Virus record (IMG/VR): IMGVR_UViG_2778261543_000009
Coordinates: 1-31,069 of that record
DNA from: a virus
Taxonomy: Duplodnaviria > Heunggongvirae > Uroviricota > Caudoviricetes
Direction: 5' to 3' (one strand)
Length of the DNA stretch: 31,069 bases
Shown: positions 9,202-9,566 of the stretch, piece after piece
How the letters are laid out: every line of letters begins with the position of its first letter
Position numbering within the stretch: position 1 is the stretch's first letter
Notes under the pieces: generated by a model
Databases searched by the model: none
What the model saw: only the letters and a program-made list of their open reading frames with translations
Told to the model about the DNA's origin: nothing
Program-made: the position numbers and the translations under genes

Positions 9202-9348
9202 TCACCACCATCGGATCTGCCCAACAAAATATCCAGACGCCAGAATCAGAAAGACCAACCAGATAAGTAAAAACTTCCAATTGGGAAATTTCTCGCCCAT
9301 AACTCGAATCTCAACTAGTAATTTATAAACAATGAAAAGAAACTTCAT
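9202..9348 (-). CDS. Small hydrophobic membrane peptide, tandem paralog B
   Basis: 48 aa from the ATG at 9348 (RBS AAGGGA), or 32 aa from the ATG at 9300: MGEKFPNWKFLLIWLVFLILASGYFVGQIRWW; single predicted transmembrane segment; a paralogous copy lies at 9468-9566. Confidence 0.35.
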   Translation of the reverse strand: MKFLFIVYKLLVEIRVMGEKFPNWKFLLIWLVFLILASGYFVGQIRWW

Positions 9349-9467
9349 ACAAATCCCTTTGTAACAATTACTTAACACCAAGTCATTCTATGCTTGAGTT
9401 CACGTAGCAAATCATCCATGAAGTAATTTGTTGTTTTTTCATTGCCATATGTAAAGTTATGTAAAAA

Positions 9468-9566
9468 TTACCGCCACCGGATCGCCTGAATCAAAGCGGA
9501 TAGTCCAAATAAGAAAAACACACACCATATCAACAGGAATTTCCAGTTGGGTAATCTTTCGCCCAT
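9468..9566 (-). CDS. Small hydrophobic membrane peptide, tandem paralog A
   Basis: 32 aa MGERLPNWKFLLIWCVFFLFGLSALIQAIRWR; RBS AAGGAG 9 nt upstream; the DNA around it (about 9488-9575) is a degenerate direct repeat of about 9240-9315. Confidence 0.35.
   Translation of the reverse strand: MGERLPNWKFLLIWCVFFLFGLSALIQAIRWR

Follow-up and report, generated by a model that had tools for sequence, protein, structure and literature searches.

Two small PHROG 6632-family genes between the baseplate spike and sheath-initiator genes of a Rac-type prophage: a probable inserted cassette with a possible role in lysis

Why should a tailed phage encode two short, hydrophobic and evidently related peptides between its baseplate genes? 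The question is raised by positions 9202-9566 of a 31,069-nucleotide (nt) stretch of viral DNA (Caudoviricetes; IMG/VR record IMGVR_UViG_2778261543_000009), the whole of which we refer to as the window and which represents a Rac-type lambdoid prophage with a myovirus tail. An original prediction, made by a model from the sequence alone, had described here a tandem pair of single-pass peptides without a recognized family. We find that the two peptides, hereafter copy 1 and copy 2, match PHROG 6632, a family of small predicted membrane proteins whose genes occur mostly in lysis cassettes, and we weigh below what such genes might be doing in a baseplate cluster.

The two peptides and the PHROG 6632 family

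Both open reading frames (ORFs) are present on the minus strand with exactly the limits originally given (Table 1), and the DNA repeat that accompanies them is real as well: positions 9250-9312 and 9516-9578 (63 nt, spacing 266 nt) are 71% identical. The region is AT-rich as described, with a GC content of 0.34-0.43 over 9250-9700 vs about 0.50 for the flanking genes. The shared block of 14 N-terminal residues in peptides of about 32 amino acids (aa) is only part of the likeness, however, since the similarity runs eight codons 5' of each ATG (KL[IL]xE[IL]Rx), and the length of 32 aa applies to a short form only, the normal product of the family being 45 aa from a GTG start, of which the two peptides make up the C-terminal two-thirds. 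Within codons 14-27 (MGE..LIW) the two copies differ by eight synonymous vs three non-synonymous changes, which argues for selection at the protein level rather than chance.

Scans of the peptides and their neighbors against Pfam and NCBIfam gave nothing significant, and PADLOC-DB gave no match at E ≤ 1 for five family and neighbor peptides. The earlier statement that no known family could be recognized thus stands for these resources, and only PHROG 6632, whose function is unannotated, was matched, with E = 2.4e-17 for the 32-aa and 3.5e-21 for the 48-aa form of copy 1 (residues 9-48), and E = 9.1e-13 for the 32-aa and 1.4e-16 for an extended form of copy 2. A profile search of 5.8 billion proteins returned 57 homologous clusters, and an exhaustive HMMER search of 1.84 billion representatives returned 56 homologues. 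Nearly all of these are 45 aa long, with the consensus MIDFSKLIRELRxMGEKLPNWKFLLIWxVFFLFGLSxLIxAIRWW, and the taxonomic range is confined to Enterobacterales (Escherichia, Salmonella, Citrobacter, Enterobacter, Klebsiella, Yersinia, Pantoea, Brenneria, Sodalis, Serratia and Providencia).

Related phages keep the reading frames open, a point on which the original prediction had been prepared to stand or fall, and the genes are under strong purifying selection. Synonymous sites were saturated in pairwise comparisons of ten distinct family genes, and the ratio of non-synonymous to synonymous substitution rates (dN/dS, omega) was 0.04-0.45. When L042, a diverged metagenomic relative, was used for comparison, omega was 0.07 for copy 1 and 0.06 for copy 2, compared with 0.08 for the neighboring 65-aa gene and 0.04 for the neighboring baseplate gene. 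An AlphaFold2 (AF2) model of the family protein (pLDDT 84) contains a helix at residues 4-17, a break at Pro/Asn and a second helix at residues 20-43. The best transmembrane (TM) segment spans residues 24-42, so that three residues (RWW) follow the TM helix. The model suggests a tail-anchored inner-membrane protein with a conserved amphipathic helix that would face the cytoplasm.

The two copies are genuine paralogous genes, in line with the earlier description of single-pass small membrane peptides in a prophage, but they did not arise as a local tandem pair. Local duplication was rejected because the copies have diverged like unrelated family members (44% aa identity over 48 aa, synonymous divergence saturated) and because each has closer relatives elsewhere, copy 1 resembling the baseplate type of phage Rac-SA53 and copy 2 the lysis-cassette type. 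We are highly confident that the window peptides are real, selected genes of the PHROG 6632 family, carried in an inserted cassette.

The cassette, its internal start and its places in late operons

Family genes reside in a cassette with sharp borders. In alignments of 10 and 18 loci, homology starts at an A-tract/GC-hairpin/U-tract and ends exactly at the stop codon, while the flanks are unrelated. The canonical order is the hairpin, a leader of about 30 nt that contains AAGGGAGAA and a strong Shine-Dalgarno (SD) sequence, and a gene of 45 codons, with GTG as start in 20 of 21 cases, that runs into a stop embedded in GGTGGTGA; this run is itself the SD of the next gene and abuts the ATG of that gene. 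In its canonical place the hairpin lies 40-70 nt upstream of the gene; it folds at -21 to -25 kcal/mol and shows compensatory changes in 6 of its 12 pairs, one position being A-U in nine sequences and G-C in eight. Homologous hairpins were found 5' of the family gene in essentially every locus examined. They were assessed by folding, since a simple terminator scanner missed them on account of their bulged stems. Only two such hairpins occur in the window, one after the spike gene (9829-9853) and one after the endolysin gene (29732-29756), and each heads a cassette with a small TM gene. RNAalifold, run on the leader and the 5' part of the ORF, detected no conserved structure besides the hairpin, and a regulatory RNA structure in this region was rejected accordingly.

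The original prediction had proposed that the GGTGG-type run around each stop codon could serve as SD for the following gene. For copy 1 this is so: its final codons and stop, GGTGGTGAGGG, lie 8 nt before the ATG of a 115-aa gene, with an SD-antiSD duplex of -6.9 kcal/mol. It is not so for copy 2, where GGTGGCGGTAA follows the gene as a vestige with no usable start behind it.

Transcription of the cassette appears to come from outside. No sigma-70-like promoter was found in the window at 8700-10100 on either strand (0 vs 2.0 expected by chance) and none on either strand of the Rac-SA53 locus; a copy from a Shiga toxin 2 (Stx2) phage (L006) has one threshold-level antisense promoter-like site, in the non-conserved 3' half of the gene. 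The terminator-like hairpin stands upstream of the gene and not downstream, so that antiterminated late transcription should be needed for expression; in the prophages examined, Q-like genes precede the lysis genes. In our reading, the cassette is a promoter-less late gene that is transcribed only by antiterminated late transcription. Such a design, together with the SD embedded in the stop, would allow the cassette to occupy a late-gene junction without breaking the operon.

A second start probably has to be considered within the gene. Codon 14 is ATG in all 21 family genes, and 20 of the 21 have an in-frame GGAG 9 nt upstream of it. The third base of codon 9 is G throughout (CGG, AGG, AAG, ATG or CAG), whatever the residue (R, K, M or Q), codon 10 is GAG and never GAA, and the rare CGA is invariant at codon 12. 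Where two genes encode an identical residue, their codons differ in 10% of pairs in codons 2-13 vs 61% in codons 28-45. This pattern is most simply read as a dual start giving 45-aa and 32-aa products, although we consider the chance that both starts are used to be evenly balanced. The peptides of the original prediction would then correspond exactly to the predicted 32-aa short form.

We also analyzed where the cassette resides. In a sample of the best 80 viral loci from IMG/VR, which is redundant (62 of the 80 proteins are identical), the order was endolysin-gene-Rz in 64 and spike-gene-gp25-like in 16, and the hairpin was present by a strict pattern in 75. The position between the endolysin gene R and Rz is seen in H-19B, in Stx1a, Stx2a and Stx2c phages, and in SPN3UB and FSL SP-016, while that between the spike and gp25-like genes is seen in Rac-SA53 and SEN34. 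On bacterial contigs the cassette follows genes for GH108, M15, GH19 or other endolysins and precedes Rz/Rz1, DUF2570/LysC-type spanins or a 60-aa lipoprotein gene. The flanking endolysins are of at least four unrelated types, and further sites lie after a tail fibre gene or after a gene for a protein of about 965 aa. By blastn, a cassette match was found in 989 of 5,426 complete Escherichia coli genomes, at up to six places per genome; most of these matches span the conserved 5' half only, and RefSeq leaves nearly all of them unannotated.

The lysis module of the window itself carries an analogous cassette with a gene of another family. Its 57-aa small TM gene belongs to PHROG 4493 (E = 3e-23) and ends ...AVRWW, and the stop of this gene, TGGTGGTGA, directly adjoins the ATG with which a lipoprotein gene of 60 aa begins (PHROG 7528, lipobox LLVGC). 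An i-spanin of the Rz type was not evident in this lysis cassette (29338-29760, minus strand).

The array in the window and its baseplate setting

In the window, the hairpin is followed by an unrelated 65-aa gene, by copy 2 in its short form and by copy 1 with 48 aa (Table 1). The hairpin is thus separated from both copies by the 65-aa gene, and copy 1 abuts the 115-aa gene, while copy 2 abuts nothing.

Table 1. Positions of the array, its neighbors and the analogous lysis-module cassette in the window
Feature	Position	Strand	Description
gp25-like sheath initiator	8847-9194	minus	115 aa, PHROG 7986; translationally abutted to copy 1; between spike gene and Baseplate_J
Copy 1, short form	9202-9300	minus	32 aa, MGEKFPNWKFLLIWLVFLILASGYFVGQIRWW (MGEKFPNWKF...GQIRWW), from the family's conserved internal Met14
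Copy 1, probable full product	9202-9348	minus	48 aa, alternative N-terminus MKFLFIVYKLLVEIRVMGEKF..., ATG 9348; SD AAGGGA, -5.1 kcal/mol
Mini-ORF between copies	9372-9419	minus	15 codons, MDDLLRELKHRMTWC; resembles the family's N-terminal helix (xDxSKLIRELRxM)
Copy 2	9468-9566	minus	32 aa, MGERLPNWKFLLIWCVFFLFGLSALIQAIRWR (MGERLPNWKF...AIRWR), short form only
Copy 2 SD, AAGGAG	9576-9581	minus	9 nt before ATG; counterpart of the family's invariant in-frame GGAG
Unrelated 65-aa tail-anchored membrane-protein gene	9584-9781	minus	MQPNSS...GTLIYLKN; contains AETTPQGADKAARIIAVCRGIRHILTPVAWIICTALVA
Cassette head	9823-9857	minus	A-tract, GC-rich hairpin, U-tract (intrinsic-terminator-like); free energy -21.3 kcal/mol, z = -3.1; directly after spike gene
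Baseplate spike gene bppV	9891-10604	minus	237 aa; annotated baseplate protein in Rac-SA53 and E. coli W; weak GpV Apex motif match
Analogous cassette, lysis module	29522-29760	minus	near-identical hairpin (~29727-29760) after GH108 endolysin gene, then 57-aa TM gene

Copy 1 has MKFLFIVYKLL in place of the canonical N-terminus, and its internal ATG, which would give the 32-aa form, has a weak SD (-2.7 kcal/mol). Over the 13 upstream codons, comparison with L042 showed three synonymous and no non-synonymous changes, and these conserved codons, taken with the low omega of the whole gene against the same relative, indicate that copy 1 is most likely translated in its long form. The gene is closest to rac58 of Rac-SA53, with an omega of 0.13. 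Copy 2 has lost the canonical GTG start, the leader and the hairpin, but the duplex of its AAGGAG with the 3' end of 16S rRNA (-8.2 kcal/mol) makes this the strongest SD in the array. Upstream, its frame (..YIDLPEKLI) lacks a start codon and runs into an overlap with the 65-aa gene, and its end, where the C-terminal W has become R before a TAA stop, has drifted to RWR-TAA now that no gene abuts it. A 68-aa product from ATG 9674 was rejected, being an out-of-frame overlap with a selected stretch of the 65-aa gene and having a weaker SD. An intact form of copy 2 exists in L042 and in a further locus (L013), and the closest intact relative (P0010), with an omega of 0.06, lies in a GH108 lysis cassette.

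The 65-aa gene takes its last codons, out of frame, from the former 5' end of copy 2 and stops 18 nt short of the ATG of the latter. An initial 71-aa reading of this ORF was replaced by one of 65 aa from ATG 9781 on the strength of the SD (-6.4 kcal/mol at 9781 vs +0.2 at 9799) and of homologues in prophages of E. coli and Salmonella, which are about 65 aa long. In Salmonella (L034) the gene comes after a SASA-domain tailspike gene, has hairpins in front of it as well and overlaps the next gene. The mini-ORF between the two copies is kept in L042 with an in-frame indel, and from its sequence we tentatively take it to be what is left of a third copy, an orphaned N-terminal fragment, although it could also be a gene of very small size.

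The array occupies a small-ORF stretch of 700 bp within which RefSeq annotates nothing. This part of the prophage is 99.2% identical to E. coli W, and the flanking genes are 95% identical to phage Rac-SA53. On the minus strand the order is hub, spike (bppV), small-ORF region, 115-aa gene, inserted ant and a weakly LprI-like ORF, and Baseplate_J. The baseplate wedge gene that the original prediction had expected at the position of the peptides is not missing, as it is the 115-aa ORF immediately downstream: the best PDB matches of its AF2 model (pLDDT 75) are to T4 gp25 (5iv5_BD, probability 0.96, and 5iw9), and the syntenic Klebsiella gene matches PF10934 (Sheath_initiator). The idea that a wedge gene is lacking was rejected on these grounds. 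In distant relatives of the baseplate module (Erwinia, Arsenophonus and a metagenome), the spike and 115-aa genes directly overlap without a cassette, and the cassette is therefore an insertion and not a part of the baseplate.

The number of small ORFs at this junction varies among relatives, with one gene in Rac-SA53, four in STEC711 (L004, 2053-2758), and six annotated genes plus two hairpins in L042 (1131-2349). To judge from these sequences, the junction between spike and sheath-initiator genes in Rac-type myoviruses is a hot spot at which genes for small membrane proteins accumulate. A 55-aa gene (MINFSGGDW..) found there has its leader and first five codons (GTG ATT AAT TTT AGC) in common with PHROG 6632, and a 37-aa gene has the ..AIRWW-TGA end in common with it. 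Their resemblance suggests that common heads and tails may act as recombination arms.

Several further observations concern the surroundings of the array. Inserted genes lie between the gp25-like and Baseplate_J genes at 7222-8871, among them a 248-aa ORF with a GC content of 0.30-0.34 and a sub-threshold LprI match (18.2 bits vs a cutoff of 22) and the ant gene on the plus strand (8302-8871; AntA-family antirepressor), the 3' end of which overlaps that of the 115-aa gene by about 25 nt. The counterpart of this segment in E. coli W holds a different gene and a truncated ant. Just upstream of ant, also on the plus strand, is an Rfam match to sRNA-Xcc1 (RF02221; 8181-8265; 72.4 bits, E = 1.5e-11) above the gathering score. 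Two database labels were also found to be at odds with the sequences. Actinobacillus phage vB_Apl-pPE4 (PP818812.1) matches the same window segments, at the same identity (95.2%), as E. coli phage Rac-SA53, which is unexpected for a phage of Actinobacillus pleuropneumoniae, and its host assignment may deserve a check. Likewise, NZ_CP026085.1 and NZ_CM135829.1, labeled E. coli DH5alpha (about 4.83 Mb), contain a W-type prophage region at 99.2% identity, a value equal to that of E. coli W and its derivatives, and these labels may be wrong.

Proposed role, rival explanations and likeness to known systems

We propose that a PHROG 6632 gene, whose usual site is between endolysin and spanin genes, was here inserted between the spike and sheath-initiator genes, and that recombination with further cassettes then enlarged the insertion to an array of three genes for small membrane proteins. 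The product would be made only in lytic growth, from the antiterminated late transcript, and would reside in the inner membrane as a lysis accessory, for instance one that modulates holin triggering or timing. Long and short forms might play different parts, and the window copies may have split these two forms between them. As a whole, this explanation, in which an inserted PHROG 6632 cassette encodes a late-expressed membrane protein that assists lysis, is the one we lean towards, by a modest degree. The lysis role of PHROG 6632 taken by itself is put forward only tentatively, from the location between endolysin and spanin genes, the holin-like dual-start design and the membrane topology. Since lambdoid late genes are on one transcript, the baseplate location of the window copies does not contradict such a role.

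Several points weigh against this proposal. The link to lysis is guilt by association, and the R-Rz junction is a known tolerant insertion site. The cassette adjoins unrelated holins, endolysins and spanins and has no co-evolving lysis partner; neighbors so varied point to a host or membrane target rather than to a specific phage partner. The charged C-terminal tail of canonical holins is absent from the family protein. Our promoter scan used a consensus threshold and would miss weak or non-sigma-70 promoters, and the literature searched yielded no paper on the PHROG 6632 family. Recombination or gene conversion between cassettes could, instead of a second start, explain the low synonymous variation at the 5' end. 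Finally, one or both window copies could be decaying, given that the canonical start and leader have been lost, together with the terminal Trp of copy 2, although the omega values argue otherwise.

The original prediction had mentioned membrane toxins and exclusion proteins as the usual roles of such peptides, a suggestion that fared poorly, as no promoter, no antisense RNA and no defence-family match was found. The stronger of the alternatives that follow from it is nevertheless a superinfection-exclusion or moron protein, made in the lysogen and blocking the entry of incoming phage DNA like HK97 gp15. An accessory, AT-rich insertion in a tail operon that encodes a single-pass inner-membrane peptide would suit this idea, other moron-like genes adjoin it (ant and the weak LprI-like ORF), and HK97 gp15 provides the precedent of a small membrane protein from a tail operon (PMC3594210). 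We nonetheless consider it unlikely. There is no promoter-like site in the window and none in two relatives save the threshold-level antisense site of the Stx2 phage, weak promoters being possible; the terminator-like hairpin is upstream, and the gene runs into an essential late gene. Moreover, there is no PADLOC match and no similarity to gp15/YebO or to any Pfam family, and most copies are in lysis cassettes.

Somewhat more doubtful still is the possibility that the cassette is an operon connector, in which a terminator or insulator, a ribosome-reloading ORF and a supply of SD sequence are what matters, the peptide itself does little and the copies in the window are what recombination between cassettes has left behind. 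In its favor, the SD for the following gene is invariably found at the 3' end, DNA conservation is higher in the hairpin, leader and first 13 codons than in the remainder, and other small genes (the 55-aa gene and PHROG 4493) have the same head and tail sequences. Copy 2, too, lost its terminal Trp and its SD once no gene abutted it. However, amino acids are strongly conserved over saturated synonymous sites, the TM half included (omega 0.04-0.45), copy 2 feeds no downstream gene and still has an omega of 0.06, and relatives without the cassette couple the spike and gp25-like genes by direct overlap, with no need of a connector.

Least credible by a wide margin is a type I toxin-antitoxin-like pair of tandem peptides that depolarize the membrane under antisense RNA control, as in ldr/rdl, ibs/sib and hok/sok, for although size, hydrophobicity and tandem layout are those of type I toxins, the A-tract/hairpin/U-tract could terminate in both directions and the Stx2 phage copy alone has one weak antisense promoter-like site, there is no toxin promoter and no conserved antisense promoter (the L006 site is absent from the window and Rac-SA53), no Rfam antitoxin sRNA in the window at gathering score or at 9100-9950 at E ≤ 1, and, apart from the hairpin, no RNA structure conserved across the leader and 5' ORF; moreover, the gene has the same orientation as the late structural or lysis genes to which it is translationally abutted. 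The related idea of a conserved opposite-strand promoter directed towards the hairpin was rejected, as a single threshold site in one Stx2 phage was all that was found.

Returning to the proposed late-expressed cassette, a wider and rather speculative extension would see PHROG 6632, the PHROG 4493 type and the 65-aa and 55-aa families as exchangeable micro-gene cassettes, in which head and tail act as expression signals and homology arms and the 6632 body acts as a dual-start regulator of lysis timing that could influence the release of Shiga toxin and phage. The position between R and Rz in many Stx1, Stx2a and Stx2c phages is what suggests an influence on toxin and phage release: in H-19B and in Stx1a-, Stx2a- and Stx2c-converting phages the cassette forms part of the lysis cassette, and in such phages lysis timing governs toxin release. 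The family is common yet nearly invisible in annotation, and a conserved, strongly selected late gene of unusual build makes a cheap and well-defined target for deletion genetics. It also exemplifies how an essential operon can take up very small genes without suffering polar effects.

Among known systems, dual-start holin/antiholin genes such as lambda S105/S107 and phage 21 S68/S71 (reviewed in PMC9636201) offer one comparison. Like these, PHROG 6632 encodes a small lysis-cassette membrane protein with two conserved in-frame starts, from which a long and a short form, set apart by a charged N-terminal extension, would result. Unlike in these, the starts are 13 codons apart rather than 1-3, and the protein has one C-terminal TM helix and no charged cytoplasmic C-tail. 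Set against the usual features of a holin, the family has a single TM helix, and while 64 of the 80 sampled members lie between endolysin and Rz, the window copies lie in a baseplate cluster; the gene also differs from holin genes in following the endolysin gene, in cassettes that already have holin genes (Phage_holin_8, Phage_holin_3_7 or S21-like). A second comparison is with the Mu gp25 releasin (DUF2730; PMC9239132), a membrane-tethered cytoplasmic lysis protein. Both are small lysis-cassette proteins with one membrane anchor and a cytoplasmic part, but the families are unrelated, the anchor of the releasin is N-terminal, and the releasin acts on signal-anchor-release (SAR) endolysins, whereas PHROG 6632 accompanies GH108, M15, GH19 and R21-type endolysins alike. 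Spanin features were sought in the family protein and none was found, the TM helix being C-terminal and both a periplasmic domain and a lipobox being absent; where the cassette lies among lysis genes, it is followed by genuine Rz/Rz1 genes.

Outside lysis, the E. coli type I toxins (Ldr, Ibs, Hok, ShoB and ZorO) are likewise hydrophobic, about 20-50 aa long and often in tandem, some with aromatic or basic ends. The present genes differ from them in having no promoter that could be found, no long structured 5' untranslated region, no antisense RNA gene or Rfam match, and in being embedded in late operons. By definition, a moron is expressed from the prophage as a unit of its own, with its own promoter in front and a terminator behind (PMC3594210). 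As with lambdoid morons such as HK97 gene 15, the window region is extra DNA between late genes, with deviant GC content, a patchy distribution among close relatives and a small inner-membrane product; in contrast to morons, no promoter was found, the terminator-like hairpin lies upstream of the ORF with none downstream, and the late gene that follows is coupled to the ORF.

PHROG 6632 itself is catalogued only as an unnamed PHROG, and a cassette of this design, with the terminator first, two starts and an SD in the stop, appears to be undescribed, as do its mobility between late-operon junctions and the split of long and short forms between two copies. The 45-aa product with an M(I/F)DFSKLI N-terminus and a GTG start behind the AAGGGAGAA leader is absent from both window copies. 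Compared with other PHROG 6632 loci, the window copies are without the canonical GTG start, leader and hairpin, and there are two of them plus an unrelated small gene instead of a single gene. The family members rac58 of Rac-SA53 (ALP46931.1) and SEN34_23 are nevertheless their direct homologues (HMM E = 1e-13 to 1e-21), sharing with them the KLIRELRxMxEKLPNWKFLLIW core, one C-terminal TM helix and the RWW end.

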